DNA of 32,000 bases from Okeania sp. GTDB taxonomy: Bacteria; Cyanobacteriota; Cyanobacteriia; Cyanobacteriales; Microcoleaceae. A model generated the notes under the pieces. That model had not been told where the DNA came from. It searched no databases and saw only the letters and a program-made list of their open reading frames with translations. The translations under genes and the position numbers were made by a program. This document shows, in pieces, positions 9,093-32,000 of the stretch (position 1 is its first letter; each line of letters opens with the position of its first letter). The stretch covers positions 5,870 to 37,869 of the forward strand of contig NZ_JAYKGW010000154.1 in NCBI RefSeq assembly GCF_035285525.1, in the 5' to 3' direction.

Positions 9093-10286
9093 GTGAAGAT
9101 ACTATTAGTTTGTACAGAAAAATTGCCAGTACCTTGTATACGAGGTGGAGCTATTCAAACATATATAGATGGTATTCTACCCTACCTAAAACGAGAACAT
9201 GAAATCACAGTATTCTCATTAGCAGACCCAGAACTACCAGATCGGGAAATTAGAGAAAATATTCGCTACCAACGTGCTAGTAGAACAACATCAGAAGAAT
9301 ACTATCAAGCAGTAGCAGATTTTGTAGCAGGACAACAATTTGATTGGATAGTAATATACAATCGTCCCAAATATTTACCAATAGTTGCTAAGGCAGCTCC
9401 AAATACTCGGTTTCTACTAAGTATGCACAACGAAATGTTCCATACTAAGAAGATAGAACCAGAAGAAGCAAAAATATGCTTGGATCGAGTAGAAAAGGTA
9501 GTCACGGTAAGTAAATTTATTGCTGATGGGATAGCCAAGTTATTTCCAGAATATAAACACAAGCTACAACCTGTATATGCTGGAGTAGACCTCAAGCGTT
9601 TTCAGCCAAGATGGACAGAAGGGGGGGGAGAAAAACGCCAACAAATGTTGGCAGCTCATGGTTTAGAAGGTAAACAAGTAATCCTTTGTGTGGGCAGGTT
9701 AACAGATAAAAAAGGACCACATATTTTAATATCTGCGATCGCCAAAGTAATCAAAAAACACCCATCTGCTGTACTATTGCTAGTAGGAAGTAAGTGGTAT
9801 GGTAATAACAACGAAAATGATTATGTTCGTGAGATTAAAGGAAAAGCCGAAAAATTAGGATCGGCAGTGCAGATGACAGGATTTATTCCTCCATCAGAAG
9901 TTGCAGATTATTTCCTATTAGGTGATATATTTGTATGTGCTTCTCAATGGGAAGAGCCTCTAGCTAGAGTTCATTACGAGGCAATGGCAACTGGACTATG
10001 TACGATTACTACCGCTAGGGGAGGAAACCCAGAAGTAATTGTGCCTGGGAAAAACGGTATTGTCATCACAGATTATGAAAATCCGAATGCCTTTGCCAAG
10101 CAGATAGATTACTTATTATCTAAACCCAAGGAAAGTGAAGCAATGGGAAGAACAGGTCGTGAGTTGGCTGAACTATATTATAGTTGGTCAAGGGTGGCTT
10201 GGGATATCCTAAGTATAATAAACGATTCAAAATCACTGCCTTTAGAGAAACTAAACTCAATAGAGCAAGATAAAGAAGCTGGATAA
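9093..10286 (+). CDS. Glycosyltransferase, GT4 family (GT-B fold, retaining type)
   Basis: 397 aa with a GTG start giving MKILLVCTE. It has the E-x7-E motif (EEPLARVHYEAMATG), GRLTDKKGPHILI and the C-terminal Glycos_transf_1 pattern. It is on the same strand as the first PKS gene and 260 bp upstream of it. Confidence 0.85.
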   Translation: MKILLVCTEKLPVPCIRGGAIQTYIDGILPYLKREHEITVFSLADPELPDREIRENIRYQRASRTTSEEYYQAVADFVAGQQFDWIVIYNRPKYLPIVAKAAPNTRFLLSMHNEMFHTKKIEPEEAKICLDRVEKVVTVSKFIADGIAKLFPEYKHKLQPVYAGVDLKRFQPRWTEGGGEKRQQMLAAHGLEGKQVILCVGRLTDKKGPHILISAIAKVIKKHPSAVLLLVGSKWYGNNNENDYVREIKGKAEKLGSAVQMTGFIPPSEVADYFLLGDIFVCASQWEEPLARVHYEAMATGLCTITTARGGNPEVIVPGKNGIVITDYENPNAFAKQIDYLLSKPKESEAMGRTGRELAELYYSWSRVAWDILSIINDSKSLPLEKLNSIEQDKEAG

Positions 10287-10557
10287 ATCGAATCCGATTT
10301 TTCCATATCAAAGTCAGACTTACTTAATATAAGGATAGGAATTATATAAAATCCGATTGATGATACGGTAACTGTTGTATATAACCTCCTTAATCTAAGT
10401 ATAGTCTCAATTTAGTTTCCAGGCTTCAATATTTTCTTTTTTCTTAATGTATGACATTTGACTCTATTTGTCATACTACGATGACTAAATTACTCGGGTT
10501 CTACATCATACCCTAAAACCCAGAACAAACTCAAGAATATTTGTATTGGTTGATTTT

Positions 10558-13500
10558 ATGAAGGAACAACAAAAAAGTGACCTAACAGCTATTATTGGCA
10601 TAGCTTGTCGATTTCCAGGGGCAAATGACTATAATCAGTTCTGGGAAAATATAGAAGCAGGAGTAAATAGCATTAGTGAAATTCCTCCCCAAAGGTGGGA
10701 AATAGAAAAACATTATTCTCCTCTTCCTAATCAACCAAATAAGACAATAAGTAAATGGGGTGGATTAGTAGAAGGTATAGATGAGTTCGATGCCGAGTTT
10801 TTTAGTATTTCTCCGAGAGAAGCAGGAAAGGTAGACCCACAACATAGAATAATGTTGGAACTGAGCTGGTCTTGTATCGAAGATGCGGGTTACTCACCAT
10901 CTGCATTTTCGGGAAAAGATGTGGGTGTTTTTATGGGGGCTTGTAACTATGACTCCATTCTCTTGATGAACCGAAATCAAGACAATGTAGAAGGTCATAG
11001 TGGAACGGGAACTTGGACTTGTATGATTCCCAACCGTATCTCTTCATTTTTTAATCTGCATGGTCCAAGTATTCCTATAGATACAGCTTGTTCGAGTTCA
11101 TTAGTAGCTGTTCATTATGCACTTAAGTCCCTAAAAGAATCAGAATGTGAAATGGCATTAGTGGGTGGCATCAGCGTATTATTTACCTCAACAACATATA
11201 TCCAGATGAGTCAACTGGGGATGTTGTCACCAACAGGTCAATGTAGAACATTTAGTAGTGATGCTGATGGTTATGTTAGGGGAGAAGGAGCAGGAGTAGT
11301 TTTATTAAAGCCTCTGACCAAAGCAATGGAGGATGGAGACCGGATTTATGGTGTAATTAAAGGAAGTGCTATTAATCATGGAGGTAAAGCTAGGACTATC
11401 ACATCTCCCAATGTTTATTCCCAAGCTCAAGTTATTCGTTCTGCTTATACTAATGCCAATGTTTCCCCGAATACAGTATCTTACATGGAATCCCATGGAA
11501 CGGGGACACCATTGGGAGATCCAATCGAAGTTAATGCTTTGAAAAGAGCCTACAGACAACTATATCAACAGTATGGAGTAGAAAAAACAGATAATTCCTA
11601 CTGTGGAATAGGAGCAGTAAAAAGTAATATAGGGCATTTAGAAGGAGCAGCAGGGATTGCTGGACTAATAAAAGTCTTGTTAGCAATGAAGTACAAAAAG
11701 CTACCCAAAATTGTTAACTTCAAGGAATTAAATCCACGGATTAGTCTGAAAGGTACTCCTTTTTATCTCATAGAGGAAACCCAAGAATGGGAAAGATTAA
11801 AAAATGAATCAGGGGAAGATATTCCGAGACGAGCAGGTTTAAGTTCCTTTGGTATCGGTGGTGTTAATGCTCATATTGTATTAGAAGAATCCCCAGAAGT
11901 AGAAAGGGTAGGGAATATAGAGGGTTCAGTTAATATTTTAAGTTTGTCGGCGAAAACAGAAACAGCTCTTGCTGATCTAGTTAATAGTTATGAAAATTAT
12001 TTAGAAGCAGAAAATAATGATGAGTTAGCAGATATTTGCTACACAGCAAACATTGGGAGAAACGACTTTAGTCATAGATTAGCATTCATCACTTCCGGAA
12101 AACCAGATTTATTAGAAAAAATTAAACAATACAAACAGGGAGAGGAAGTTACTGGCATCTGTTCGGGAAAAATAACCAGCCAAACTACGACAAAAATAGC
12201 TTTTCTATTTACTGGTCAAGGTTCTCAATATCTGCAAATGGGAAGGGAGTTATATAATACTCAACCAACTTTTAAGGAAGCTATCGACAAGTGTAATGAG
12301 ATTCTGGGAAAATATCTAGAAGTTCCTTTATTAGATGTACTTTATCCTGATGATGAAACTTCGACTTTAATCAACCAAACAGCTTATACTCAACCAGCTA
12401 TATTTGCTCTAGAGTATGCCTTAGCTAAGTTATGGTCATCTTGGGGTATTAAACCAGATGTAGTCATGGGTCATAGTGTAGGTGAATATGTCGCAGCAAC
12501 AGTGGCTGGAGTATTTAGTTTAGAGGATGGTCTGAAATTAATTGCTACTAGGGGTCGGTTGATGCAACAGTTACCCGCAGGTGGAGAAATGGTGTCGGTG
12601 ATGGCATCGGAGTCAAAAGTAGAATCTGTTATTACTCCTTATACAGACAAGGTAGCGATCGCTGCGATAAATGGACCTCAGAGTATAGTGATATCAGGAG
12701 CTGCGCCAGAAGTAAAAGATATTATTAGTAGTTTAAAATCAGAAGGAATCAAAGCCAAAAAACTACAAGTATCCCATGCTTTTCATTCACCGTTGATGGA
12801 ACCAATGTTGAAAGAATGGGAAGCAGTAGCGAGTCAACTAACTTACAATCAGCCCAAGATACCAGTAGTATCAAACGTTACAGGAAAGGTGGCAGATGAA
12901 AGCATAACAACAACCAAATATTGGGTAGATCATGTACGTCAACCAGTAAGATTTTTCCAAGGGATGGAAGTCTTACATCAAGAGGGTTATGACATATTCC
13001 TAGAAATCGGGCCGAAACCAATATTATTGGGTATGGGGCGTCGGTGTTTACCCGATCATCTAGGAGAATGGTTACCATCGTTACGTCCTAATGCCGATGA
13101 ATGGCAACAAATATTATCAAGTTTAGGGAAGTTGTATGTTAAGGGGGTAGAAGTTGATTGGTTAGGATTCGAGCAAGATTATAGCCGTAAGAAAGTTTCA
13201 TTGCCTACATATCCATTCCAACGACGACGGTATTGGGTAGAGGAGAGTAGCCAGCAGAAACAGCGATCGCCAAGAACTTTTGGCTCCCAAGTGCCAATAC
13301 ATCCATTATTGGGTTACAAAATTGATATCGCAGGCCAGCAAAAGATTTTTGAATCATTCCTGGGAGCAGAGAATCCAGAATACCTCAAAGATCATAAAGT
13401 ATTTGCAGAACCTCTGTTACCAACAACAGCATATTTGGAAATGGCTTTAGCAGCAGGTAAAAGCCAATATCAAACTCCACTGATAGAAGTAAAAGAACTG

Positions 13501-16500
13501 AGTATAGAGCGGGGGTTAGTTTTATCCGAAGCCGAGAAAATAGTTCAGACGATACTTACCCCATTAGAAAATGATATCTATCAGTTCCAGATATTTTCTC
13601 AACAACAGGAAGGGGAAGAAAACCAAAAATGGCTACTCCATGCAGCAGGTAAAATACAGCCAGGAGCGCCAGAAGTAAAAGAAACCAAATTTGAAACAGA
13701 GAAATATTTAGCTGAATGCAGTGAATCTGTAGAAGTTGCCAAACATTATCAGAGTAGTGAGGAAATGGGAATTAGTTATGGTCCCAGTTTTCAAAGAATA
13801 AAACAGCTCTGGAAAGGAGATAGTCAAGCTATCGCTAAAATTATTCTGGCTCCAGAAATGGCAGCTACTATTGGGGAGTATAATATACATCCAGTAATGT
13901 TAGATTCTGCATTGCAGGTAATCTTTAATGCACTGCCAGTAGAAGACAATGATAGTCAACAAACATATTTGCCAGTAGGGGTAGATAAGTTAACAATTTA
14001 TAATCCGGCAGAATCATCTATGTATGCTTATGGGTCAGTAGATGGTGCGGGTGCAGGAAATTGGAAAGCTGATGTGATTCTCGGCAACGAATCAGGTAAA
14101 ATAGTTGCTAAAATTTCTGGGTTACGAGTGAAAGCAGCAAGCAAGGAAGCTTTAATTGGCAAAAAAGAAGAATCTATTACTAACTTGCTGTATGAGATAG
14201 AATGGCGGGCAAAAGGACGTTTGGGCAGGACGTTGCCACCAGATTATTTGCTGGCTCCTAAAGATATTGAACAGCAACTAGAACCAACTATTAAGGAATT
14301 GATAGTTCAAGCTCAATTAGAAAGCTATCAAGAAGTCCCAGGAAAACTAGAAGCATTAAGTCTGGATTATGTGTTACAGGCGATTAAAGAATTAGGGTGG
14401 AATTATCAAGCTGGAGATAGTTTTGATAGTGAAAAAGAATTAGAAAGCTTAGGTATCGTAGAAATTCAACAACGTCTTTTCAAACGAATGCTACAGATGA
14501 TGGCAGAAGGCGGAATAATTGAACCAGTAGCTGGCACAGATACTCAGTGGAATGTACTGCAAACATTAGATGTAGAGCCAAAGCAAGGGAAAAAAAGAGG
14601 AGACGAACTACTGAGTCAATATCCAGAGGCAGGAGCTGAGTTAACACTTTTAAATCGTTGTGCGTCTAAATTAAGTTTGGTATTGCGGGGAGAAACTGAC
14701 CCGGTACAGTTAGTGTTTCCATCAGGAGATTTGAGTACAGCAACTAGGGTATATCAAGACTCCACTATAGCGAAATTGATGAATACTGTAGTAGAAAAAG
14801 CGATCGCTACAGCTATTGCTCAACTACCAAAATCTCAAAGTGTCAGGTTGTTAGAAATAGGAGCAGGAACTGGAGGAACTACAAGTTATATTTTACCGAG
14901 TCTACCAGAAAATAATACGGAGTATATATTTACTGACTTGGGAGCTTTGTTTACAGCCAAAGCCAAAGAAAGATTTGGGGATTATCCTTTTGTAGATTAT
15001 CAGATATTAGATATAGAAGCAGATCCAACAACTCAGGGTTATAATGCTCATCAATATGATGTAATTATTGCAGCGAATGTTCTCCATGCAACAGCTAACT
15101 TGACAGAAACCCTATCTAATGTACGAAAACTTTTAGCACCAGGGGGAATATTAGTTTTATTTGAACTAACAAGTCGTCAGCGATGGTTAGATTTAGTATT
15201 TGGATTATTGGAAGGATGGTGGAGATTCCAAGATTTAGAAATACGACCTGATTATCCTCTACTGAGTCGTTCCAAGTGGCAAGAGGTATTGCAGAAAACA
15301 GGTTTTACTGAAGTCGTAAGTTTACCAGAAGTTGAGGGAATGCCAGAAGTTTTGTATCAGCAATCAGTTATTGTTGCTCAGAATACAAAGGTATTACCAC
15401 CATCATCAGAATCTAAAAATTGGTTGATATTAGCAGACAAACAGGGAGTAGCTGAAGAGTTAGCAACTAAACTAAAGTTTATGGGAGATGTTCCTCTTTT
15501 GGTATTTGCTGGAGAGAAATATCAAGATTTGGGAGAGGGTAAGTTTACTATTAATCCTAACAACCCAGAAGATTTTAAACAATTGATGGGAGCGGTTTCT
15601 TCCTTGTATGGAGTTGTGCAATGTTGGACGACGGAAACTGGAGGCAGTGAAAAAATAGAAGAGTTATCGCGGTACGGGTGTGGAACAACTTTATATTTAG
15701 TTCAAGCACTGGTACAAGGAGGATTATCTCAGCCACCTCGTTTATGGTTAGTCACTTCTGGTTCTCAACCAGTACCATCTAGTAATTCCTTAATGGCAAA
15801 AGTAGGTCAATCTTCACTATGGGGAATGGGGAAAGTTATTAGCTTAGAACATCCAGAATTTAATTGTGTACGGATAGATTTAGATTCAGAAACAACTATA
15901 GAGAATCAAGCTAATGCGTTGTTTAAGGAAATTTGGTCAGAAGATTTAGAAGATCAGGTAGGGTTCCGTGAAGATTATCGTTATATAGCTAGATTAGTTG
16001 CCAGTCATCACCAGGAACTCCCAGCTACAAGAGGACTGACAATACCATCCCAACCCTATAAACTGGGTATATCAGAAAAAGGCAGTTTAGACAGCTTAAC
16101 CCTAGAAACAATCAAGAGAAATGCTCCAGCACCAGGGGAAGTAGAGATTCAGGTAATGGCAACCGGACTTAATTTCCTAGATTTGGTGGCAACACTAGGA
16201 TTAGTACCAGATGAAGTAGATGGTGTATCTCAAAAACATTTGAGAGAAATGGATAGATTTGGGGGAGAATGTGGTGGTTATGTAGTAGCAGTAGGAGAAG
16301 GAGTAAAAGGTTTAGAAATTGGTGATGAAGTTGTAGCTATGGCTAGAGGTAGCTTCAGTCAATATGTGACAGTTAACGCCAGTTATGTAGTGCCGAAGCC
16401 AGAAAATATAACTTTTGCAGAAGCAGCATCAATACCAGCTAACTTTTTAACTGCTTATTATGCTTTACATCACGTTGCCAAGATTACTAAAGGCGATCGG

Positions 16501-18210: not shown

Positions 18211-18371
18211 AACTGACCGAAATTCTGTCTCAAATCTCAAGCCAAGGCATTAAATTATGGGCTGAAGGTGATGAGTTGAAAATCCGTGCCCCCAAGGGAG
18301 CTTTAACAACAGAAACTCGCGATTTATTATCCAAAAATAAACTCGAATTACTTCATTTACTTCAGGAAAAA
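18207..18371 (+). other. TubC-type N-terminal docking domain
   Basis: ILSQISSQGIKLWAEGDELKIRAPKGALTTETRDLLSKNKLELLHLL matches the L..L...G..LW.EGD.L...AP.G.L......L...K.ELL.LL pattern of NRPS N-terminal docking domains that follow a PKS. Confidence 0.8.
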
Positions 18372-22583: not shown

Positions 22584-22607
22584 GGAGTAGGGAGGTTCCA
22601 TAGAATC

Positions 22608-23006: not shown

Positions 23007-26000
23007 ATGAATCAACCAGAAGAAGCACAACAGCAATATAATGATAATGAAATTGCTATCATAGGAATGTCTGGGCGTTTTCCAGGGGCAAGAAACTTGG
23101 ATGAGTTTTGGGATAATCTCAAGAATGGTGTTGAATCTATCTCATTATTATCAGATAAACAATTAATAAAATCTGGTGTTGCCCCCGAAATACTCAATAA
23201 TCCTAGCTATGTAAAAGTCGGTTCTACGGTTTCAGACATTGAAATGTTTGATGCTAACTTTTTTAACTACAGTCCCAGAGAAGCAGAAGAAATAGATCCA
23301 CAACAACGACTTTTTTTAGAGTGTGCTTGGGAAGCAATCGAAAGTAGTGGTTATAATCCAGAAAAATATGAAGGTTCCATTGGGGTTTATTCTGGCAGTG
23401 GACTGCCCACCTATTTAATGTATAACCTCGAAGAACAAGATTTTATTCTCCTGGGTAATCGCTACTTTACCCAAATGGTGGCTAATGACAAAGATTACTT
23501 AGCAACCCGCACCGCTTACAAACTAAACCTTACCGGACCAGCAATCACTATTCAAACAGCTTGCTCAACATCATTAGTTGCCGTACATTTGGCTTGTCAA
23601 AGTTTGCTCAATGGAGAATGTGACATGGCTTTAGCAGGTGGTGTTTCCATCCAAGTCCCTCAAAATGTGGGATACTTACATCAAGAGGGATTGATCGGTT
23701 CTCACGATGGTCATTGTCGTGCCTTTGATGCTAAAAGTTCGGGAACAGTTTTTGGTAATGGTGTGGGAGTTGTGTTACTGAAACCACTTCCAGATGCTAT
23801 AGCAGATGGAGATATTATTCATGCTGTGATTAAGGGTTCGGCGATTAATAATGATGGTTCTTTGAAACTAGGTTATACTGCTCCCAGTGTAGATGGTCAA
23901 GCAGCAGTTATTTCTGAAGCTCAAGCTGTCGCGAGTATAAGTCCAGAAACAATTACATACATAGAAGCTCATGGTACGGGGACAGAATTAGGAGATCCCA
24001 TTGAAATTGAAGCTTTAACCAAAGCCTTTTCCGAAAGCACCGATAAAAAACAATTTTGTGCTATAGGTTCCCTGAAAACAAATGTGGGACACATGAATAC
24101 GGCAGCAGGGGTAGGAGCATTGATTAAAACTGTTTTGGCTCTCAAACATAATTTAATACCTCCCAGTCTCCACTACGAAAAACCTAATCCCCAAATTAAT
24201 TTTAGCGATACTCCCTTTTACGTCAACAATACTTTATCTGAGTGGAAAGGGAACGGCATTCCTCTACGAGCTGGAGTTAGTTCTTTTGGAATAGGTGGAA
24301 CTAACTCTCACGTTGTGTTGGAAGAAGCTCCCACTCTGGAGAAAGCAGAAGATGATTTACCACGTCCGGTTCATATATTAACTTTGTCAGCAAAGACTGA
24401 CACAGCTTTATCAGATTTAGTCGATAGTTATCATCAGTATTTAAAGAGTAATCCAGATTTAGATATAGGAGATGTTTGTTTCACTGCTAATACAGGAAAA
24501 GTTCATTTTCACCACAGATTAGCAGTTGTTGCTGCCAACCAAACAGAATTAATCGAAAAACTAGAACAGTTAAAATCAGTAGGGACGTTGTATGCAACGT
24601 CCCTACCTGGTATCTGTTCTGGAAAACTGTTAATGAATGCTGCTCCTCCTAAAGTCGCCTTTCTATTCACTGGTCAAGGTTCCCAATATCTCAATATGGG
24701 CAAGGAATTATACGAACAAGCACCAGTTTTCCAAGCAACACTTGATGAATGTGATGAAATATTAGGGGAACTTGGTGTCACCTCCATATTAGAAATTATC
24801 TATCCTGATGCAGAGACATCACCCCTAGACCAAACAGCTTATACCCAACCGGCTCTATTTGCTATAGAATATGCTCTAGCCAAATTATGGGAATCTTGGG
24901 GCATTCAACCAGATGTAGTTATGGGTCATAGTGTCGGTGAATATGTGGCAGCAACAGTGGCCGGAATATTTAGTTTAGAAGATGGTCTAAAATTGATAGC
25001 AGCAAGGGGTCAGTTGATGCAAAAGTTACCTGCTGGTGGAGAAATGGTGGCGGTGATGGCATCAGAAGCAAAAGTCAAAAGTCTCCTTACACCTTATAGA
25101 GAAAAAGTAGCGATCGCAGCTATAAATGGACCCAAAAGTGTGGTAATTTCTGGTGAAGCGACAGCAGTAAGGGAAATTGTTAGCAGTTTAGAATCAGAAA
25201 AAATCAAAACTAAACAATTACAGGTATCTCACGCATTCCATTCACCATTGATGGAACCTATGTTAGCAGAATGGGAAGCAGTAGCTCAGGAACTGACTTA
25301 TAATCAACCAGAAATTCCGATTATATCGAACGTTACCGGAACAATAGCAGACGCAAGTATTACAACACCAAAGTATTGGGTAGATCATGTACGTTTACCA
25401 GTAAGGTTTGTTGACGGTATGAATGCTTTAGACAAACAGGGGGTTGACATTTTCCTAGAAGTCGGACCAAAACCAATATTGCTGGGAATGGGTCGCCGAT
25501 GTTTACCTAAAGATGTGGGTGTTTGGTTGCCATCATTACGTCCTGATGTAGGGCAGTTTTCTGAGATACTTTGTACTTTAGGAGAGTTATATGTGCGGGG
25601 TGTAAAAGTAGACTGGGTAGAATTTGATGGAGAATATATTCGTCAGAAAGTGACATTACCTACTTACCCATTCCAGCGACAAAAATACTGGCTCGATAAC
25701 TATTCACGGGGAGCAAGTTCGGCTTCAGTTAATCGGGATCGGAGTTTGATCGCTGAGGAGGAAATATCCAATTCTTTATTAGGTCGTAAATTACCTTTAC
25801 CCTTTGCCCAACAATTTCGCTTTCAGACTAAATTAACTCCTGAGTTTCCTTCTTATGTAAAAGACCACAGATATTACGGCAGAATAGTTGTAGCTGGTGC
25901 ATCTCACATTGTTTTTGGTTTGCTAGCGGGTAAAGAAGCACTAAAAAGTGAGTCTTGCATTGTAGAAAATATTGAGTTTTTGCAGATATTGGGAGCAGAT

Positions 26001-28706
26001 GAAACTTCTAGTCGAACAGTGCAGATAGTCCTAGATCGAGAAAAAGATACAGAATATACTTATCAGTTGATCAGTTGTGAAGCAGGAACAGAATATGACC
26101 CATCAACAACTTGGACGGTTCATATTAAAGCCAAAGTTCGCTCTGTGAATAATTCAGAGTTACCGAAAGAAAATATTGATATTAAAGCATTAAAAACGCG
26201 ATGTGTTCATTCTTTTTCCAGCAGTGAATATTACTCAACTGCACTGGAACCGATGAAAGGAGATTTTCATCTGGGGCCGACATTTCAATGGACAGAACAA
26301 GCTTGGATCGGCGGTACAGAAAGCTTGGTAAAAATAAAATCTGCTGAAAACAATGAAGAAATGCAGGAATATTGGCCTCATCCTGGTATGGTTGATTCTG
26401 GAATTGTGCCCATAGCTCTGTTGTCATTACTACAACAGTTTTCTGAAAATAATGATAATGGCAAAAGACCTACTATAGAGAGGGATGTAGAAATTCCTAC
26501 TTACGCATTTGCTGGAGCGAAGAGTTTTAAGTTTTTTGATAATTTTGACATTGATGATGAATTGTGGTACTACACAAAAATTGACGATTCCAGTTCTTAC
26601 GAGCAAGGAGAACTGCAAGGTAATACTTATTTGCTCAATGGAAATGGCAAAATATTAGCAGAATATAGGGGAATAAACTTCCGTCAACTAAGTCGCAAGT
26701 TATTGTTGAGGAGTTTTGGGTTAGATTTTAGTCAATGGTATTATCAAACAGAATGGCAACCTTCTCCTTTAATGTCTGGTGACGCACAGGAACCAGGAAC
26801 TTATCTGTTATTTTGCCCTACAGGAGAATCAAATACTAAGTTAAAAGAATGGAGCGATCGCCTAAACTCGAACTTATTAAAGCCAGGTAATCAGTGTATA
26901 GTTGTTTATCCAGGAGATAGTTATCAAAAGCTATCTTCTGAAGACAAAAAGCAGACAATTCAATTATCTCCAACAGAACCAGAACATTTTTCTAAGTTAC
27001 TAGATGAAGTAAATGAGTTAACAGAAGAGCTACCTTTGAAGAGTGTGATTCACCTTTGGAGTTTAGATACAAATGTTGATGATTTGACAAAAACAGAAGA
27101 AATAATTTGTGGTAGTATTATTCACTTATTGCAAGGGATACAATCTCTAGAAAAATCACCTCCTCTGTTATTAGTTACTCAAGGTGCTTTACTAGGAGTT
27201 GGAACTAAAGATTCAGAAGTAAGTATTAACTCTCAACCCCAGCAATCTCTTTTATGGGGGGTAAGCAAAGCCATAAGTTTGGAGTATCCGCAGTTAGACT
27301 GTCGTTGTTTAGATCTAGATCCTCAGACAGATGAACCAGAAAGCATAAAAGTTTTGTTGGATGAAGTCGCCTACCAGCAAACATCAACCAGTGGAGAAAA
27401 TCAAATTTGCTATCGTCAAGGTGAACGGCAAGTAGCAAGACTCACTCAACCGAAGTTAGATACAGATACCAAATTAACTATTGAGACGGAAGCAAGTTAT
27501 GTGATTACTGGTGGTTTAGGTGCTTTGGGATTAGAAGTGGCTCAGTTCCTAGTCAAACAGGGAGTGAAGAGTATAGTCTTAATAGGGCGCAACTCTCCCT
27601 CAGAAACCGCCCAGGAAAGTATTCAAGAGTTAGAAGCAGCAGGAACTCAAGTTTCAGTATTCTTGGGAGATGTGTCTGTGGAAAAAGATATGGTTGATAT
27701 TTTCCAAAAGATACAGACATCCTTACCTCCCCTTAAAGGTGTAATTCATGCTGCTGGAGTGGTAGATGACGGATTTATACAACAAATGAGTTGGCAACAA
27801 TTTACAAAAGTTACTGCTCCCAAAGTAGCTGGAACTTGGAATATACATAAACTAACAAAAGATATACCATTAGATTTATTTGTTTGCTTTTCCTCCATTG
27901 CATCGGTCTTAGGTTCCCCTGGTCAAAGTAATTATGCTGCAGCTAACGCTTTTATGGATGCAGTCGCCCAATACCGTCAAAATATAGGATTACCAGGATT
28001 GAGTATTAACTGGGGACCTTGGGCAAATATTGGTATCGCTGCTAGACTGGGGGCACAACAACAAAGTCGGATTCAAAGCCAAGGTTTACAAGGAATTACA
28101 ACGGAGCAAGGGTTACAAGCTTTAGAAGAAGTATTAGCTACCGAAGCAGCACAGATAGCAATATTTAATGTTAACTGGCAGCAGTTATTGAGTCAATTTG
28201 GCTCGATGACTCCAGCATTCCTATCAGAAATAGCAAGTAAGCATCCACTTCAAGGTCAAGGAAACCAAGGACCAAAACAGCGGGAGTTGTTAGAACAAAT
28301 GAAGGTAGGAACAACTGACCAAAGACAAAGGTTAATGGTTGATTATTTGATTGGTGTTGTTGCTAAAGTCTTGAGGCGGGGTAAAAATGATTTACCAGAT
28401 CCAGAGGAAGGATTCTTTAATTTAGGAATGGATTCCCTGATGGCACTAGATTTTGGGCAAATGATTCAGGTAGATTTAGGTATGACTTTGTCCTCAACTT
28501 CTACTTTTGAGTATCCAAATATTCAGGCATTAGCTGAATATTTAGAGGAAATAATTCCCAAAATAGATGAGACGGAAACTGAGTCTGGAAAAGCTGATGC
28601 TGTAGTTGATTCAGAAAATTTAATTACAGAGATTAGTCAGCTTTCAGAAGACCAAATGGATGCAGCTATTGATGAAGCTCTGACTCAACTTTATCAATTT
28701 ATATAA
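23007..28706 (+). CDS. Type I polyketide synthase, KS-AT-DH(like)-KR-ACP (PKS3)
   Basis: 1899 aa. The domains were recognised by motif (see the domain features). There is an acidic N-terminus (MNQPEEAQQQYNDNE) and a helical C-terminal docking-like tail. Confidence 0.97.
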   Translation: MNQPEEAQQQYNDNEIAIIGMSGRFPGARNLDEFWDNLKNGVESISLLSDKQLIKSGVAPEILNNPSYVKVGSTVSDIEMFDANFFNYSPREAEEIDPQQRLFLECAWEAIESSGYNPEKYEGSIGVYSGSGLPTYLMYNLEEQDFILLGNRYFTQMVANDKDYLATRTAYKLNLTGPAITIQTACSTSLVAVHLACQSLLNGECDMALAGGVSIQVPQNVGYLHQEGLIGSHDGHCRAFDAKSSGTVFGNGVGVVLLKPLPDAIADGDIIHAVIKGSAINNDGSLKLGYTAPSVDGQAAVISEAQAVASISPETITYIEAHGTGTELGDPIEIEALTKAFSESTDKKQFCAIGSLKTNVGHMNTAAGVGALIKTVLALKHNLIPPSLHYEKPNPQINFSDTPFYVNNTLSEWKGNGIPLRAGVSSFGIGGTNSHVVLEEAPTLEKAEDDLPRPVHILTLSAKTDTALSDLVDSYHQYLKSNPDLDIGDVCFTANTGKVHFHHRLAVVAANQTELIEKLEQLKSVGTLYATSLPGICSGKLLMNAAPPKVAFLFTGQGSQYLNMGKELYEQAPVFQATLDECDEILGELGVTSILEIIYPDAETSPLDQTAYTQPALFAIEYALAKLWESWGIQPDVVMGHSVGEYVAATVAGIFSLEDGLKLIAARGQLMQKLPAGGEMVAVMASEAKVKSLLTPYREKVAIAAINGPKSVVISGEATAVREIVSSLESEKIKTKQLQVSHAFHSPLMEPMLAEWEAVAQELTYNQPEIPIISNVTGTIADASITTPKYWVDHVRLPVRFVDGMNALDKQGVDIFLEVGPKPILLGMGRRCLPKDVGVWLPSLRPDVGQFSEILCTLGELYVRGVKVDWVEFDGEYIRQKVTLPTYPFQRQKYWLDNYSRGASSASVNRDRSLIAEEEISNSLLGRKLPLPFAQQFRFQTKLTPEFPSYVKDHRYYGRIVVAGASHIVFGLLAGKEALKSESCIVENIEFLQILGADETSSRTVQIVLDREKDTEYTYQLISCEAGTEYDPSTTWTVHIKAKVRSVNNSELPKENIDIKALKTRCVHSFSSSEYYSTALEPMKGDFHLGPTFQWTEQAWIGGTESLVKIKSAENNEEMQEYWPHPGMVDSGIVPIALLSLLQQFSENNDNGKRPTIERDVEIPTYAFAGAKSFKFFDNFDIDDELWYYTKIDDSSSYEQGELQGNTYLLNGNGKILAEYRGINFRQLSRKLLLRSFGLDFSQWYYQTEWQPSPLMSGDAQEPGTYLLFCPTGESNTKLKEWSDRLNSNLLKPGNQCIVVYPGDSYQKLSSEDKKQTIQLSPTEPEHFSKLLDEVNELTEELPLKSVIHLWSLDTNVDDLTKTEEIICGSIIHLLQGIQSLEKSPPLLLVTQGALLGVGTKDSEVSINSQPQQSLLWGVSKAISLEYPQLDCRCLDLDPQTDEPESIKVLLDEVAYQQTSTSGENQICYRQGERQVARLTQPKLDTDTKLTIETEASYVITGGLGALGLEVAQFLVKQGVKSIVLIGRNSPSETAQESIQELEAAGTQVSVFLGDVSVEKDMVDIFQKIQTSLPPLKGVIHAAGVVDDGFIQQMSWQQFTKVTAPKVAGTWNIHKLTKDIPLDLFVCFSSIASVLGSPGQSNYAAANAFMDAVAQYRQNIGLPGLSINWGPWANIGIAARLGAQQQSRIQSQGLQGITTEQGLQALEEVLATEAAQIAIFNVNWQQLLSQFGSMTPAFLSEIASKHPLQGQGNQGPKQRELLEQMKVGTTDQRQRLMVDYLIGVVAKVLRRGKNDLPDPEEGFFNLGMDSLMALDFGQMIQVDLGMTLSSTSTFEYPNIQALAEYLEEIIPKIDETETESGKADAVVDSENLITEISQLSEDQMDAAIDEALTQLYQFI
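23049..24329 (+). other. PKS3 ketosynthase domain (hybrid NRPS-to-PKS type signature)
   Basis: IQTACSTSLVAVHLACQSL (Cys186, codon 23562-23564), EAHGTGT and TNVGHMNTAAG. The TACSTSL spelling is common in KSs that accept chains from a PCP. Confidence 0.9.
24579..24606 (+). repeat. 28-nt perfect-arm palindrome (copy 2) embedded in frame in the KS-AT linker of PKS3
   Basis: gtagggacgttg-tatg-caacgtccctac begins exactly at codon 525 and is read as VGTLYATSL(P). Paralogous linkers in PKS1 (QGEEVTGICSGK) and PKS4 lack it. Confidence 0.9.
24648..25544 (+). other. PKS3 acyltransferase domain (malonyl-type signature)
   Basis: FLFTGQGSQ, GHSVGEY (Ser642) and HAFHS (aa 742-746). It is visibly very similar at nucleotide level to the ATs of PKS1 and PKS4. 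Confidence 0.9.
25767..26711 (+). other. PKS3 dehydratase-like domain with divergent motifs
   Basis: VKDHRYYGRIVVAGASHI (His954 and Gly958, but Ala963 where Pro is usual), FHLGPTFQ instead of Y.YGP.F, and HPGMVDSGIV (Asp1130 present, no Gln/His at +4). Confidence 0.6.
27492..28031 (+). other. PKS3 ketoreductase catalytic subdomain
   Basis: YVITGGLGALGL, HAAGVVDDG (an LDD-like, B-type indication) and GSPGQSNYAAANAF with the catalytic Tyr present. The structural subdomain is roughly 26790-27461. Confidence 0.9.
28320..28550 (+). other. PKS3 acyl carrier protein domain
   Basis: FFNLGMDSLMALDF, with Ser1810 at codon 28434-28436. Confidence 0.9.
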
Positions 28707-28708
28707 AA

Positions 28709-28902
28709 TAGGGAACAGGGAACAGGTATGGAGGGAATAGTTTCATCTAAAAATGTAGGTTGGGTTGAGGTACGAAACCCAACAAAACTTGATTAGGGAA
28801 CAGGGAACAGGTATGGAGGGAACAGGGAATAGGTATGGAGGGAACAGTTACACCTAAAAATGTAGGTTGGGTTGAGGTACGAAACCCAACAAAACTTGAT
28901 TA
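28709..28902. repeat. Tandem pair (87 and 107 nt) of a composite repeat: GGGAACA-type heptamers plus the GTAGGTTGGGTTGAGGTACGAAACCCAAC hairpin
   Basis: Copy 1 is 28709-28795 and copy 2 is 28796-28902. Copy 2 has an internal duplication of gggaa(c/t)aggtatggagggaaca. The hairpin cores are at 28755-28783 and 28862-28890. It starts 3 nt after the PKS3 stop. Confidence 0.9.
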
Positions 28903-29001
28903 GGTTCAACCCAACAAAGCTTGATTATGGTTGGGTTATAGCAACCGCCAAGGCAGTTAGGACATATTAAAAGCCTAAAATCCAGACAAAGCCAGATTTT
29001 T

Positions 29002-29029
29002 CCTTCTGCCTTCTACCCTCTGCCTTCTG
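29002..29029. repeat. Heptamer short tandem repeat CCTTCTG (4 copies, 2 degenerate)
   Basis: ccttctg ccttcta ccctctg ccttctg was read directly. Confidence 0.8.
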
Positions 29030-29098
29030 CTATATTCTCACGGAGAAGTAAGCTACGTCCCATGCTATACTACTCAACTTTATCAAAGGAGGCACAAA

Positions 29099-29122
29099 GT
29101 AGGGACTATGCAACGTCCCTAC
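29099..29122. repeat. Palindrome GTAGGGAC-TATG-CAACGTCCCTAC (copy 3, shortened)
   Basis: gtagggactatgcaacgtccctac belongs to the same family as 3895-3922 and 24579-24606. Confidence 0.85.
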
Positions 29123-29166
29123 TCAACGGGAGCCAGATGCTCCCACTATCTAAAGCCTAGATTGTT

Positions 29167-29195
29167 GTTGGGTTTCGTACCTCAACCCAACCTAC
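29167..29195. repeat. Inverted copy of the 29-nt GTAGGTTGGGTTGAGGTACGAAACCCAAC core
   Basis: gttgggtttcgtacctcaacccaacctac is the exact reverse complement of 28755-28783 and 28862-28890. It ends 31 nt before the PKS4 ATG. Confidence 0.9.
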
Positions 29196-29226
29196 ACCTA
29201 ATATCTACCAAAAAAGGAATTAAAAA

Positions 29227-32000
29227 ATGGTACTTAGCTCCGAAACTACTCAACTCTCAAATCAACAACGTCTGTTGCTAGCAGTCAAACAAGCAACTGC
29301 CAAACTCAATGAAATTGAAACAGCGACTACTGAACCAATAGCAATTATTGGTACTGCTTGTCGTTTTCCAGGGGGTGTTGATACTCCAGAATCTTACTGG
29401 AAATATCTTAGAGAATCAATAGATGGCAGAATAGAGATTCCCAAAGAACGGTGGGATAATGACCGCTACTATAATTCTGACCCCGAAGCACCAGGCCAAG
29501 TCTACGTTCGCCACGGTTATTTTCTACAACAACCTGTAGACCAGTTTGACCCTGGTTTTTTTGGTATTTCTGGGGCAGAAGCAAATAAGATGGATCCATC
29601 TCAACGACTTTTGTTGGAGGTTACTTGGGAGGCATTAGAAAATGCAGGTATTGCACCCAGAAGTTTGAAAAATACAGAAACAGGAGTATATATAGGTCAA
29701 TGTTTTAATGATTATATATTCGTTGGCACAGATGCCTTACCTAATAATTTGAGTGATTTTTATCTAGGTCTGGGTACAGCAATGAATACTTCTTCAGGTC
29801 GGATAGCTTATGTTTTTGGATTACAAGGACCAACTTTTACTTTGGATACAACTTGTTCCTCATCCTTAGTTACTTTACATATAGCTTGTCAGAGTTTGCG
29901 GAGTGGAGAATCTAATCTTTCTTTGGTAGGTGGAGTAAATTTAATGCTTCATCCAACTGTTACTCATGGATTCTGTAAAGGTCGAGCATTATCCCCCGAT
30001 AGTCGTTGCAAGACTTTTGATGCGAGTGCTGATGGTTATGCTAGGGGAGAGGGTTGTGGCATACTTGTCCTCAAACGTCTTCGGGATGCTGTGGCCGATG
30101 GCGATCGCATTTTGGCTCTGGTGAAAGGTTCTGCTATTAACCATGATGGCCCTAGTAGTGGACTGACAGTTCCCAACCAACAGGCGCAAAAGAAGGTGCT
30201 GCGACAAGCTTTGGCAAATGCTAAGGTCAACCCGTCAGAGGTTGACTATATTGAATGTCACGGTACGGGAACTTCTTTGGGAGACCCTCTGGAAGTTAAG
30301 GCTATTGATGATGTTTATTGTGGAGAAAGAAGTAAGGATGCTCCTTTGATTTTGGGTGCGGTTAAAAGTAATGTGGGGCACTTGGAAGCTGCTGCTGGGG
30401 TGGCAGGGTTAATTAAGATTATTGGGATGTTGCAAAGTAAGGAAATACCGCCAAATCTTCACTTTAATCAACCTAACCCTCAGATTGATTGGGATAAAAT
30501 TCCGGTGCAGGTGGCAACCAATGTTATACCTTGGAACAAACCAGGTAAACCGATGTTGGCAGGAATTAGTGGATTTGGCATGAGTGGTACTAATGCTCAT
30601 GTGATTTTACAATCAGCACCAGAAGAAGTCAAAATTCCAAATTCCAAATTCAAAGGTGACGGTGATAGTGAGAATACTTTAGAACGTTCGCTTCATTTAT
30701 TAACTCTGTCAGCTAAAACTAAAAAAGCTTTGGAGGAGTTGGTGGTTCGTTATCAAAATTATCTGACACAAGAAAATAATGAGAATGAGTTGGCTGACAT
30801 TTGTTATACAGCTAACACAGGGCGTACCCATTTTAATCACAGATTAGCAGTTATGGCAGCTAGTCAAGCAGAGTTATTGGAGAAATTAAGCGCTGGTGTA
30901 ACTGGGGAGGAATTATTTTTAGGGCAAGCATCTAGTAGTGCTGTACCAAAGGTAGCTTTCTTATTTACTGGTCAAGGTTCCCAATACATTAATATGGGTT
31001 GGGGATTATATCAGCAAGCTCCAGTTTTTCGACAGGCGATCGACCAATGTAATGAAATTTTCAGTAAAATTGTTGAGGAGCAAGAAGAATCAAAATCAGT
31101 TTCTCTGTTGGATGTGATGTATTCTGATACTGAAGAAGATTCTGACTCATCTCTACTACACCAAACTGCTTATACTCAACCAGCACTATTTTCTATTGAA
31201 TATGCTTTAGCTAAATTATGGCAATCTTGGGGTATTCAACCAGATGTAGTTATGGGGCACAGTGTTGGTGAATATGTGGCGGCAACAATAGCAGGAATTT
31301 TTAGTTTAAAAGATGGATTAAAATTAATTACTACCAGGGGAAGGTTAATGCAAAAGTTACCTGCTGGTGGGGCAATGGTTTCTGTGATGGCTTCAGAATC
31401 AAAAGTACGTCCTTTACTAGCAAACTACACGGATAAGGTGGCTATGGCAGCTATTAATGGGCCAGCAAGTGTGGTGATTTCTGGAGAGTCAGAAATAGTA
31501 GAGGCGATCGCTAGCAAATTAAAGTCGGAAAAAATTAAAACGAAACAACTGCAAGTTTCTCATGCTTTCCATTCACCTCTGATGGAACCAATGTTAGAGG
31601 AGTTTGAGAAAATAGCTAATGAACTTGACTATAATATACCTAGAGTTCCAGTAATATCTAACGTCACAGGAATAAAGGCAGATAGTAGCATTACTACGGC
31701 GAAATATTGGGTAAATCATGTTCGACAACCAGTGAGATTTAACCAAAGTATGAATGCTTTGCAACAACAGGGAATTGATATTTTCCTAGAAGTCGGACCA
31801 AAACCAATATTATTAGGTATGGGACGTCGGTGTTTGCCAGCAGATGTAGGTGTGTGGTTGCCATCATTGCGTCCGAGTCAAATCCCTCAACCACAAATCC
31901 CCCTCCCGTCACCCTTGGAAATCCCCCTCCCGTCCCCCTTGGAAATCCCCCTCCCGTCCCCCTTGGAAATCCCCCTCCCGTCCCCCTTGGAAATCCCCCT
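29227..32000 (+). CDS. Type I polyketide synthase, docking-KS-AT-... (PKS4), 3'-truncated by the window edge
   Basis: It is absent from the ORF track because no stop is reached. I translated it by hand from the ATG at 29227 (aagga 9 nt upstream): MVLSSETTQLSNQQRLLLAVKQATAKLNEIE..EPIAIIGTACRFPGG... The frame is open without a stop to nt 32000. Confidence 0.95.
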   Translation, partial: MVLSSETTQLSNQQRLLLAVKQATAKLNEIETATTEPIAIIGTACRFPGGVDTPESYWKYLRESIDGRIEIPKERWDNDRYYNSDPEAPGQVYVRHGYFLQQPVDQFDPGFFGISGAEANKMDPSQRLLLEVTWEALENAGIAPRSLKNTETGVYIGQCFNDYIFVGTDALPNNLSDFYLGLGTAMNTSSGRIAYVFGLQGPTFTLDTTCSSSLVTLHIACQSLRSGESNLSLVGGVNLMLHPTVTHGFCKGRALSPDSRCKTFDASADGYARGEGCGILVLKRLRDAVADGDRILALVKGSAINHDGPSSGLTVPNQQAQKKVLRQALANAKVNPSEVDYIECHGTGTSLGDPLEVKAIDDVYCGERSKDAPLILGAVKSNVGHLEAAAGVAGLIKIIGMLQSKEIPPNLHFNQPNPQIDWDKIPVQVATNVIPWNKPGKPMLAGISGFGMSGTNAHVILQSAPEEVKIPNSKFKGDGDSENTLERSLHLLTLSAKTKKALEELVVRYQNYLTQENNENELADICYTANTGRTHFNHRLAVMAASQAELLEKLSAGVTGEELFLGQASSSAVPKVAFLFTGQGSQYINMGWGLYQQAPVFRQAIDQCNEIFSKIVEEQEESKSVSLLDVMYSDTEEDSDSSLLHQTAYTQPALFSIEYALAKLWQSWGIQPDVVMGHSVGEYVAATIAGIFSLKDGLKLITTRGRLMQKLPAGGAMVSVMASESKVRPLLANYTDKVAMAAINGPASVVISGESEIVEAIASKLKSEKIKTKQLQVSHAFHSPLMEPMLEEFEKIANELDYNIPRVPVISNVTGIKADSSITTAKYWVNHVRQPVRFNQSMNALQQQGIDIFLEVGPKPILLGMGRRCLPADVGVWLPSLRPSQIPQPQIPLPSPLEIPLPSPLEIPLPSPLEIPLPSPLEIP
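29332..30615 (+). other. PKS4 ketosynthase domain
   Basis: LDTTCSSSLVTLHIACQSL (Cys codon 29854-29856), ECHGTGT and SNVGHLEAAAG. The domain ends at GTNAHVILQS. It is preceded by a coiled-coil-like N-terminal docking segment (29227-29331). Confidence 0.93.
30949..31875 (+). other. PKS4 acyltransferase domain (malonyl-type signature)
   Basis: KVAFLFTGQGSQ, GHSVGEY (Ser codon 31261-31263) and VSHAFHSPL. It ends at the conserved WLPSLRP (31855-31875). Confidence 0.9.
31896..32000 (+). repeat. 24-nt perfect tandem repeat (at least 4.4 copies, continues past the window) inside the PKS4 coding frame
   Basis: The unit is aaatccccctcccgtcccccttgg, at 31896-31919 (one mismatch), 31920-31943, 31944-31967 and 31968-31991, with a partial copy at 31992-32000. 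It is translated in frame as (Q/E)IPLPSPL repeats. Confidence 0.95.

Follow-up and report, generated by a model that had tools for sequence, protein, structure and literature searches.

A biosynthetic locus in the right part of a 32,000-nucleotide stretch of an Okeania sp. genome (RefSeq assembly GCF_035285525.1, contig NZ_JAYKGW010000154.1; the whole stretch is referred to below as the window) encodes a hybrid assembly line of cis-AT polyketide synthases (PKSs) and one protein resembling the nonribosomal peptide synthetases (NRPSs). The cluster is real, intact, and orphan, and can be recognized by its gene order and published annotation as the orthologue of the Tery_3819-3822 genes of Trichodesmium erythraeum. 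The NRPS-like protein contains a C-ligase-T module that is of an undescribed type, set within an ordinary cyanobacterial cis-AT PKS framework. Judging from the sequence comparisons described below, this module has the scaffold of a depsipeptide module in which the core formed by keto-acid ligase and ketoreductase (KAL-KR) is replaced by a different ANL ligase. The overall interpretation, a four-module hybrid line that is orthologous to Tery_3819-3822 and works by the mechanism outlined below, is put forward with moderate confidence.

The mosaic nature of the NRPS-like protein is evident from its domain organization. Its C domain retains an intact HHxxxDG motif (HHIISDG), as in a canonical C-A-T module, and is followed by two remnants of adenylation subdomains with a complete ligase inserted between them. 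The first remnant matches residues ∼446-532 or ∼871-956 of GrsA, ApnA, and McyA in PDB searches; the second one and the PCP correspond to the junction of A10 and PCP in LgrA and PvdL. The protein does not contain a complete adenylation domain of the NRPS type (motifs A1-A10, with Asp235 for the α-amino group); PDB matches and Foldseek searches revealed only pieces of A subdomains. An earlier note on this DNA had classified the protein as an NRPS; this label is misleading, given that there is no canonical amino-acid adenylation domain and the ligase belongs to the oxalyl-CoA-synthetase family. The combination of remnant, ligase, remnant, and PCP was found in 3 of 1.84 billion protein-cluster representatives, and the remaining matches covered only the ligase or only the PCP region.

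The closest relatives of the scaffold are two proteins with the dock-C-Ax'-ligase-KR-pseudoAsub-T architecture, P0011 from Moorena JHB and P0013 from Symploca. Identity to these proteins is, respectively, 62 and 63% in the dock, 49 and 57% in both the C domain and the Ax remnant, 65 and 44% in the pseudo-Asub, and 63 and 41% in the PCP and tail, but only 23% in the ligase. StsA (6ULW) is absent from the PDB matches of the ligase at E ≤ 1e-10. Pfam found no KR (adh_short) domain in the NRPS-like protein; some 120 Asub-like residues lie between the ligase and the PCP. The KAL-KR depsipeptide modules of the dolastatin 15 and cryptophycin pathways, described in September 2026, make ester bonds, and the published recombination breakpoints of such modules flank the inserted ligase, between C-Ax and KR-T (PMC13643306). 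The ligase insert (positions 20142-22016) has a GC content of 0.44 and GC3 of 0.32, as opposed to 0.31 and 0.20 in the C domain and 0.31-0.33 and 0.18-0.20 in the flanks, a step in composition that fits a foreign origin. In comparison with T. erythraeum IMS101, the ligase shows the lowest dN/dS value in the protein, 0.089, followed by 0.23 in the C domain and 0.37-0.39 in the remnants.

The best PDB matches of the ligase were 6QJZ (E = 2.7e-72), 5IE0 (2.3e-71), and the yeast Pcs60 (8AFF; 6.6e-64). An AlphaFold model of the NRPS-like protein (pLDDT 82.9), searched as a whole with Foldseek, produced TM scores of 0.85-0.87 to the AtAAE3 structures 5IE0, 5IE2, and 5IE3 (for 5IE2, E = 6.9e-47 and TMt 0.85), with no NRPS A domain among the best 50 structural matches. 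FadD7 is the nearest NCBIfam family, and motifs A3, A5, A7, A8, and A10 are all intact. In AtAAE3, oxalate is bound by Ser289, His319, and Lys500, of which Ser289 and His319 are specific to oxalate enzymes (PMC8905533). The window ligase keeps the equivalents of Ser289 (in NCSAAL) and Lys500. The equivalent of His319, within YAMTESMPICS, is Pro in the HMMER alignment or Met in the MAFFT alignment, so that the substrate is probably other than oxalate.

In a neighbor-joining tree, enzymes with this His-less YAMTESxPI motif and a one-residue deletion, most of them from marine microalgae, form a clade apart from the TEASH-type enzymes, and His319 is lost across the whole clade. The window ligase nests in it, next to sequences from marine microalgae (MMETSP/EukProt entries, Prymnesium, Scyphosphaera, Pelagophyceae, and Effrenium); in this tree, which carries no support values, the algal affinity is only a lead. 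Several members of the clade carry a C-terminal carrier domain or even a KS, from which it follows that such enzymes load carrier proteins. We infer that the ligase of the mosaic module, too, loads its carrier protein, with a small acid other than oxalate. In Aerosakkonema sp. (L014, 10001-17817), a free-standing ligase-PCP didomain, whose ligase is 46% identical to the one in the window, is encoded directly before an NRPS consisting of C, formyltransferase-like, C, A, PCP, and TE domains; this ligase type serves there as a loading module. Many very large proteins (P0362-P0503; 1.6-7.7 kaa) also contain this ligase type, often at the N terminus and with several further matched stretches; they look like megasynthases in which it has the role of a loader.

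A small 2-hydroxy acid, glycolate or lactate, is tentatively proposed as the substrate of the ligase. In the absence of a KR, the logic of keto-acid activation followed by reduction cannot apply; with a scaffold that comes from ester-forming, 2-hydroxyacyl-PCP modules and a lost KR, a 2-hydroxy acid is the most economical choice. It is quite improbable that the ligase still activates oxalate or a 2-oxo acid, such as glyoxylate or pyruvate, which would stay unreduced and either be joined in a nonstandard way or act, as oxo-acyl-PCP, as a second starter for PKS3, with another role for the C domain. Such a substrate would be in line with the closest solved structures, all of them oxalyl-CoA synthetases, with the retained Cys288-Ser289 and Lys500 equivalents, with the 2-oxo acids activated by the ancestral module type, and with the lack of a KR in the module. 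However, His319 has been lost throughout the clade, and an oxo-acyl-PCP would give no nucleophile to the intact and conserved C domain (dN/dS 0.23). In addition, the PKS1 docking tail and the TubC_N dock are both conserved, which argues for a real transfer of the chain.

Activation of glycine, or another small amino acid such as β-alanine, would make the C domain an amide-forming one and the product a lipopeptide-polyketide of the malyngamide/jamaicamide kind. This alternative, implied by the NRPS label of the earlier note, has a low although appreciable probability. Glycine is isosteric with glycolate, and the HHxxxDG motif of the C domain is intact. The module recurs in Roseofilum (L005) and Symploca (L002), where it is joined to KS-AT-ACP3 with a cassette of HMG-CoA synthase (HCS) and ECH, or to further PKS domains; in L005 it precedes KS-AT-ACP3 and the HCS cassette, an arrangement resembling that at the glycine position of the malyngamide pathway. 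The Roseofilum clusters have been labeled “malyngamide” by antiSMASH (PMC9967302). However, the ligase falls into the acyl-CoA-synthetase (oxalyl-CoA synthetase) branch of ANL enzymes and not with the NRPS A domains, the scaffold is 49-65% identical to ester-forming keto-acid modules, and a canonical glycine A domain would be a simpler solution. We know of no amino-acid-activating member of the oxalyl-CoA synthetase branch. Further, the upstream modules in L005, which include neither a DH nor an O-MT, are at odds with the lyngbic acid chain of malyngamides. A hydroxy acid joined through an ester is no less likely than an amino acid.

The remainder of the assembly line is conventional in its layout. 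The open reading frame (ORF) map and Pfam confirmed the description in the earlier note of a colinear, same-strand hybrid line: genes for a GT4-family glycosyltransferase, PKS1, the NRPS-like protein, PKS3, and a partial PKS4, all on the plus strand, with the coordinates and domain strings that it had given (Table 1). The 21 kb of coding sequence contains zero frameshifts and zero stops, and the stop codon of PKS1 overlaps the start codon of the NRPS-like gene (ATGA), which was counted as evidence of co-expression. The KSs have the Cys-His-His triad, the in-line ATs the GHSxG motif, and the ACPs the DSL serine (for PKS4, the ACP was taken from the orthologues), as expected of modular cis-AT type I PKSs. 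All three ATs read GHSVGE...HAFHS, in agreement with the malonyl-type HAFH signature reported earlier.

In PKS1, the KS begins at residue ∼11-15, and there is neither a loader nor an N-terminal dock, which is also the case in IMS101, the metagenome-assembled genome (MAG) bin.35, Roseofilum casamattae, and Symploca. PKS1 must therefore be primed in trans. The malyngamide PKS of Okeania, which is primed in trans by a LipM homologue, provides a precedent (PMC10088813). The DH, cMT, and ER motifs are intact. The more likely start codon of PKS1 is the ATG at 10558, which agrees with the gene call in a Logan contig (2550 aa) and with the equivalent Met that starts PKS1 of IMS101.

The sequences support the PKS1 tail and the TubC_N domain of the NRPS-like protein as a docking pair: the acceptor matches TubC_N (Table 1), and the donor has a short acidic C-terminal motif, which ends with ...DEDMEEITL or ...EEREEITL in five clusters, from Okeania, Trichodesmium, Dapis, Roseofilum, and Symploca. 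The gene-end heads and tails quoted in the earlier note, which had read them all as cognate docking pairs, are present in the sequence. The PKS4 head is a putative docking element, with an alignment of residues 8-50 to residues 11-53 of CurL (4MZ0, E = 3e-10), a stretch that includes the KS start; the match of this head to the CurK-CurL fusion 4MYZ had an E value of only 2.3. The other elements, the NRPS-like tail with the PKS3 head and the PKS3 tail, resemble docking elements in charge or helical character only. The basic tail of the NRPS-like protein is conserved in P0011, and a PDB search with the C-terminal tail of PKS3 returned zero matches.

The PKS3 KS has a QTACSTSL-type spelling that is found in 7 of 7 KSs located after a PCP and in 0 of 9 readable KSs that come after an ACP or stand first in a line (these are orthologues and not independent cases); the earlier note had called this spelling common in PCP-accepting KSs. 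In the DH-like domain of PKS3, the catalytic His is Asn in all orthologues, and the alignment shows a divergent C-terminal half.

The PKS4 fragment, which has no reductive domains, extends to the right end of the window, which is also the end of the 37,869-nt contig, and is identical to P0121, a 925-aa protein of this contig annotated as “partial”; the NRPS-like protein likewise has a 100% identical counterpart, from Okeania sp., on it. A 24-nt tandem repeat in the post-AT linker, translated as (PLPSPLEI)n, continues up to the final base of the contig and probably caused the assembly break; orthologues, among which this linker varies in length, carry different short insertions at the same site. 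The orthologues of PKS4 are 84-88% identical and 1354-1383 aa long, and P0122-P0126 carry PP-binding and Thioesterase domains; the IMS101 copy (87% identity) continues into the same TE sequence. PKS4 is thus very probably a KS-AT-ACP-TE protein lacking ∼450 residues in this assembly; it would then be the terminal module of a four-module line. The earlier note had listed the loading module, the TE, and the right border of the cluster as missing. Neither a loading module nor a TE is indeed present in the window, but the missing TE and border are an artifact of the contig end. The rightward extension that it had called for could be made through the orthologues, where ACP-TE is followed by lipocalin, flavin monooxygenase (FMO)/BVMO, and lipase genes.

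The biosynthesis can be outlined as follows. PKS1 would be primed in trans by an acyl-ACP or acyl-CoA and would add one malonate, which would be C-methylated and probably fully reduced. Its ...EEITL tail would then dock on the TubC-type β-hairpin of the NRPS-like protein, where the oxalyl-CoA-synthetase-like ligase, in place of the ancestral pair of keto-acid ligase and ketoreductase, would load a small carboxylic acid onto the PCP, and the C domain would couple the acyl chain to this acid, most likely as an ester. PKS3, with its hybrid-type KS, dead DH, and B-type KR, would add a C2 unit and leave a β-hydroxyl, and PKS4 would add the last C2 unit and leave a β-keto group before release by the TE through hydrolysis or δ-lactonization. 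As the core, these steps predict a 2-methylacyl-O-CH(R)-CH(OH)-CH2-CO-CH2-COOH lipid or the corresponding 4-hydroxy-5,6-dihydropyranone; the best guess for the product is a small 2-hydroxy acid, either glycolate or lactate, in ester linkage and elongated into a β-keto-δ-hydroxy acid or a lipid of the lactone type. The GT4 and the DUF6312 and DUF6200 proteins may tailor or handle the product, together with, in the orthologous loci, a lipocalin, a BVMO-like FMO, a lipase-DUF6200 protein, and a second FMO. Glycosylation of the product, as suggested in the earlier note, is plausible.

Besides the Roseofilum arrangement and the isosterism of glycine and glycolate, several observations weigh against this interpretation. 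The substrate is not readable from the sequence of the ligase, which retains the Ser289 equivalent. Residue 2327 in the KR of PKS1 is His (CAC; NHSAANAF) instead of the catalytic Tyr, which makes full reduction uncertain; this substitution occurs only in Okeania and Trichodesmium and not in the homologues from bin.35, Roseofilum, Dapis, or Symploca. The window encodes no LipM, GNAT, or FAAL loader that could be the priming agent, nor a transporter or a receptor of the TonB type. For the TE and the downstream genes, the evidence comes from the orthologues instead of this strain. Assignment of the Tery locus tags relied on gene order and published annotation rather than on a direct look-up, and the iron response described below was measured in T. 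erythraeum and not in Okeania. Finally, there is no known product, and full-text literature searches with the Tery locus tags and the DUF families returned no product assignment.

The Tyr-to-His change and the inactive DH of PKS3, together with the MITE-like element in the PKS3-PKS4 spacer and the 24-nt coding repeat in PKS4, could also be seen as signs of a decaying, silent cluster. This is highly improbable, as the coding sequence is free of frameshifts and stops, every domain is under purifying selection, and the PKS4 repeat sits in a linker of variable length among the orthologues. The orthologous genes of T. erythraeum are transcribed and iron-regulated (PMC12090762). A dead KR in PKS1 was considered and not adopted: dN/dS is 0.10-0.15 in its KR, ER, and DH (0.085-0.34 across all PKS1 domains, compared to IMS101), and purifying selection on all three argues against calling the reductive loop dead.

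A scan for the same gene arrangement, using one genome per species, detected it in T. erythraeum IMS101 (NC_008312, 5.867-5.891 Mb), with related arrangements in Dapis, Okeania SIO2F4, Symploca, and Roseofilum. Amino-acid identity to the IMS101 proteins is 77% for PKS1, 84% for the NRPS-like protein, 87% for PKS4, and 88% for the GT4, and dN/dS is in the range of 0.02-0.45 in every domain, the exception being a 51-residue interdomain linker with 0.62. In three orthologous contigs, PKS4 is followed by genes for a Lipocalin_5 protein (162 aa in the Tara Oceans contig L013, whose PKS4 agrees with that of IMS101 in 1324 of 1330 aligned residues), a 493-aa FMO-like protein, a Lipase_3-DUF6200 protein, and a second FMO-like protein of about 640 aa (638 aa). 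The first FMO carries the BVMO-type fingerprint FSGTQFHSARW; processing from ketone to ester to alcohol by this enzyme and the lipases is speculation.

This gene order corresponds to the published annotation of Tery_3823 (162 aa, lipocalin 5), Tery_3824, Tery_3825 (lipase, pfam01764), and Tery_3826 (flavin monooxygenase) (PMC4642986; PMC5776111), which places Tery_3823-3826 directly behind the assembly line. The Tery_3823-3826 proteins are among those most strongly induced by iron stress in Trichodesmium and have been proposed to constitute an unconventional siderophore-related system (PMC4642986; PMC5776111). A paper from 2025 refers to Tery_3819-3822 as a “cryptic PKS cluster” and reports their up-regulation under low iron (PMC12090762). 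With the whole Trichodesmium block being iron-responsive, the product could well, with about even chances, serve iron-stress physiology there as a metal-binding or stress lipid. The window contains no recognized genes for chelating groups (catechol, hydroxamate, α-hydroxycarboxylate, or thiazoline/phenolate) and no dedicated receptor or transporter. The orthologous flanks, which hold two class-B flavin monooxygenases, a lipocalin, and lipases, contain no transporter either. Trichodesmium has long been thought to make no siderophore. It is a rather improbable idea that this locus, taken from DUF6312 through the GT4 and PKS1-PKS4 to the lipocalin, BVMO, and lipase genes, provides Trichodesmium and its benthic relatives Okeania and Hydrocoleum with an iron-stress lipid of their own, which might be a 1,3-dicarbonyl glycolipid that binds metal. 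The pathway would rely on a previously undescribed module in which a carrier-loading, oxalate-ligase-like domain, with its nearest relatives in marine microalgae, would install a C2/C3 hydroxy acid directly and so take the place of keto-acid ligase and ketoreductase.

Two related contigs differ from this layout. In L013 (1-9704), compared with the IMS101 locus (L004), the PKS1 ACP region (9660) is joined directly to the PKS3 ACP region (19742), omitting the NRPS-like gene and most of PKS3, with 97.6% identity on one side and 99.7% on the other; this join reflects either a chimeric assembly or a natural variant with a deletion from ACP to ACP. In Dapis sp. BLCC M172 (L001, 360-10004), an NRPS-PKS3-PKS4 cassette with 82% identity is preceded by ECH, ECH-ER, and a PKS that lacks a cMT and is extended at its N terminus by 130 residues containing repeats; the three-gene tail sits there on a longer, β-branching line.

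The orphan status suggested by the earlier note is upheld: Tery_3819-3822 were still called cryptic in 2025 (PMC12090762), and the discoverers of trichothilone A found no matching cluster (PMC11155244). That the pathway has already been characterized, or that its product is a known compound, is very unlikely. Trichothilone A itself comes from IMS101 and has no assigned cluster, and its discoverers predict a cyclization domain and N-methyltransferases (PMC11155244). Here, the C domain has the HHxxxDG motif and not a Cy motif, the only methyltransferase is the cMT of the PKS, a thiazole macrolide of 537 Da would require more than four modules, and literature searches revealed no product assignment; trichothilone A was ruled out for the lack of a Cy domain and an N-MT. 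Other candidates were rejected as well. Against a heterocyst-glycolipid (Hgl) cluster, this line includes a C-ligase-PCP module, and the PKSs encoded by hgl genes belong to another type, similar to PUFA synthases. The published structure of looekeyolide, a 16-carbon polyketide chain with two further units, needs far more than four modules, and the matching Roseofilum loci carry HCS cassettes instead. For the dihydroxyvalerate unit of aplysiatoxin, lactate and one KR-reduced extension would be an attractive match, but the additional extension by PKS4 and the low module count speak against it.

The locus reaches further to the left than was previously thought. The earlier note had made the GT4 its leftmost member. 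Membership of the GT4 is supported by orthologues with 88% (IMS101 and bin.35) and 69% (R. casamattae) identity, all three of which adjoin PKS1, and by a dN/dS of 0.108 compared to IMS101. Still further left, there are two small ORFs, for DUF6312 and DUF6200 proteins. DUF6312 is 82% identical to a protein in the equivalent position (DUF6312-DUF6200-GT4-PKS1) of locus L010, and bin.35 repeats the complete order DUF6312-DUF6200-GT4-PKS1-NRPS-PKS3-PKS4. Such synteny with PKS1 across genera indicates that the locus begins near 7500. There are two DUF6200 copies 5' of the GT4 gene in IMS101 and one here; the protein encoded by the latter shares 45% identity with the DUF6200 domain at the C terminus of the Lipase_3 protein, whose gene lies 3' of the orthologous cluster. 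Searching the literature for the two families, DUF6200 and DUF6312, gave no result. The window was free of matches in Rfam and tRNA scans, and a promoter and terminator scan of positions 6700-10700 gave 24 hits, not above the 17.5±4.3 in shuffled controls. The sole conserved noncoding block that was found covers ∼50 bp immediately 5' of the GT4 start.

Table 1. Coordinates of the locus and its domains in the window
Feature	Positions	Strand	Evidence or remark
DUF6312 small ORF, 99 aa	7501..7800	+	Pfam PF19831, E 2.3e-32; probable left part of locus
DUF6200 small ORF, 69 aa	8519..8728	+	Pfam PF19702, E 4.5e-24; called as a gene in Logan contig L012
GT4-family glycosyltransferase, 397 aa	9093..10286	+	Glycos_transf_1 5.4e-38, Glyco_transf_4 3.8e-8
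PKS1, KS-AT-DH-cMT-ER-KR-ACP	10546..18210	+	Pfam (MT as Methyltransf_12, ER as ADH_zinc_N) and motifs
PKS1 KS	10588-11721	+	DTACSSS / HGTGT / NIGH
PKS1 AT	12202-13152	+	GHSVG, HAFH
PKS1 DH	13300-14151	+	Pfam
PKS1 cMT	14794-15315	+	Pfam
PKS1 ER	16132-17034	+	Pfam
PKS1 KR	17083-17616	+	catalytic Tyr replaced by His at 17524-17526
PKS1 ACP	17914-18117	+	GLDSL; followed by acidic tail ...EEIDEDMEEITL
NRPS-like mosaic module	18207..22583	+	Pfam, PDB sequence matches, segment identities, GC, AlphaFold/Foldseek
TubC_N dock	18219-18368	+	Pfam E 1.5e-16
C domain	18426-19745	+	Condensation E 1.9e-83; HHIISDG at 18825 (residue 207)
First canonical A-subdomain remnant	19752-20141	+	residues ~516-645
Oxalyl-CoA-synthetase-like ANL ligase	20307-21896	+	residues ~701-1230
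Second A-subdomain remnant	22017-22226	+	residues ~1271-1340; A10 motif LPLTSDGKLDRK in 1307-1340
PCP	22260-22457	+	LGGKS
Lys/Arg-rich tail	22479-22580	+	sequence reading
PKS3, KS-AT-DH-like-KR-ACP	23007..28706	+	Pfam (DH partial), alignment, dN/dS
PKS3 KS	23046-24179	+	QTACSTSL; HGTGT / NVGH
PKS3 AT	24660-25604	+	GHSVG, HAFH
PKS3 DH-like domain, inactive	25776-26786	+	Asn at 25770-25772 for catalytic His
PKS3 KR	27492-28025	+	VDD (B-type) motif, catalytic Tyr kept
PKS3 ACP	28341-28544	+	GMDSL; followed by helical tail
PKS3-PKS4 spacer repeat element	28710..29196	.	repeat analysis
PKS4, KS-AT, broken off at contig end	29227..32000	+	Pfam
PKS4 N-terminal putative docking helix, CurL-like	29227-29331	+	PDB match
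PKS4 KS	29332-30465	+	DTTCSSSL; HGTGT / NVGH
PKS4 AT	30958-31839	+	GHSVG, HAFH
24-nt tandem repeat in PKS4	31895-32000	+	4.4 copies, 98% matches

Two spacers within the locus contain repeats. The 424-bp NRPS-PKS3 spacer (22584-23006; ∼110 bp in IMS101) contains one direct repeat of 25 nt, at 22765 and 22837, along with two inverted repeats that are imperfect. The PKS3-PKS4 spacer (520 bp, compared with 252 bp in the orthologue L007) carries the MITE-like element, in which a tandem duplication of 107 bp, rich in GGGAACAGG, is combined with inverted repeats that match perfectly over 32 nt (TGTAGGTTGGGTTGAGGTACGAAACCCAACAA), at 28754-28785 and 28861-28892 versus 29165-29196.

Approximately 5 kb upstream of the locus, the window encodes SufD (78-1331) and a SufS-type cysteine desulfurase (2095-3357). 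The suf operon of Trichodesmium is iron-regulated (PMC12090762). Tandem repeats follow the suf genes here: (AAGAAGG)7 at 1332-1380, a 7-nt repeat at 2052-2100, and (CCCTACTC)4.4 at 3542-3576. Three unrelated genes separate suf from the locus, coding for a DUF4177 protein (3908-4351), a cytochrome b561-like membrane protein (4432-5142), and, on the minus strand, a class-A β-lactamase-family protein (5511-6752). The subsequent ∼750 bp (6753-7500) contain no ORF of at least 60 aa.

Trichodesmium provides a large share of the new nitrogen in the ocean and is often limited by iron. The iron-stress markers Tery_3823-3826 sit directly behind a complete, TE-terminated four-module line, and the whole block is conserved in culturable benthic relatives; this leads to the testable hypothesis of one locus and one iron-stress metabolite, for which the benthic relatives would be the easier organisms. 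The line is smaller and more complete than the earlier note held, and wider on the left, while the chemistry of its product is inferred. With regard to enzyme evolution, the recombination-prone slot of the keto-acid ligases, described in 2026, can take up a different ANL ligase and lose the KR. Such a mosaic module widens the range of building blocks other than amino acids that may be open to NRPS-type modules and points to an engineering route to them.

Among the known systems, Tery_3819-3822 are the most similar in gene order: (DUF6200), GT4, PKS1 with a cMT and the Tyr-to-His change in the KR, NRPS-like protein, PKS3, and PKS4. The Okeania locus belongs to another genus and differs from that of T. 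erythraeum in having a GT4-PKS1 spacer of 260 bp instead of 95 and the repeat element between PKS3 and PKS4; its lipocalin, FMO, and lipase genes lie beyond the contig end. The mosaic module resembles CrpD-M2 of the cryptophycin pathway (C-KAL-KR-T) and Dol15D-M2 of the dolastatin 15 pathway (C-Ax-KAL-KR-T) in combining a C domain, A remnants (A8-A10 region) on both sides of an inserted non-NRPS ligase, and a T domain, with breakpoints in equivalent places. In contrast to those modules, it lacks the KR, and its ligase is not of the KAL type, being only 23% identical to the P0011 and P0013 ligases and most similar to the oxalyl-CoA synthetases. With these enzymes (AtAAE3, LsOCS, Pcs60, and FadD7), the ligase shares 33% identity, a TM score of about 0.86, all ANL core motifs, and the pocket residues Val/Ile-His, Cys-Ser, Ala-Met, and the A10 Lys. 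However, it is embedded in a megasynthase before a PCP, whereas they act on CoA, and its His319 is replaced. The PKS modules are similar to those of the curacin/jamaicamide-type cis-AT PKSs: their KS-AT didomains are 56-59% identical to CurL and its relatives, and PKS4 has a putative CurL-like docking helix. The malyngamide PKSs of Okeania hirsuta also start with a KS and are primed in trans (PMC10088813). Related loci carry HCS β-branching cassettes, of which there are none here. Unlike the curacin, jamaicamide, and malyngamide lines, this one has no LipM, GNAT, or FAAL in the window, is terminated by a TE after four modules, and includes a noncanonical NRPS-type module.

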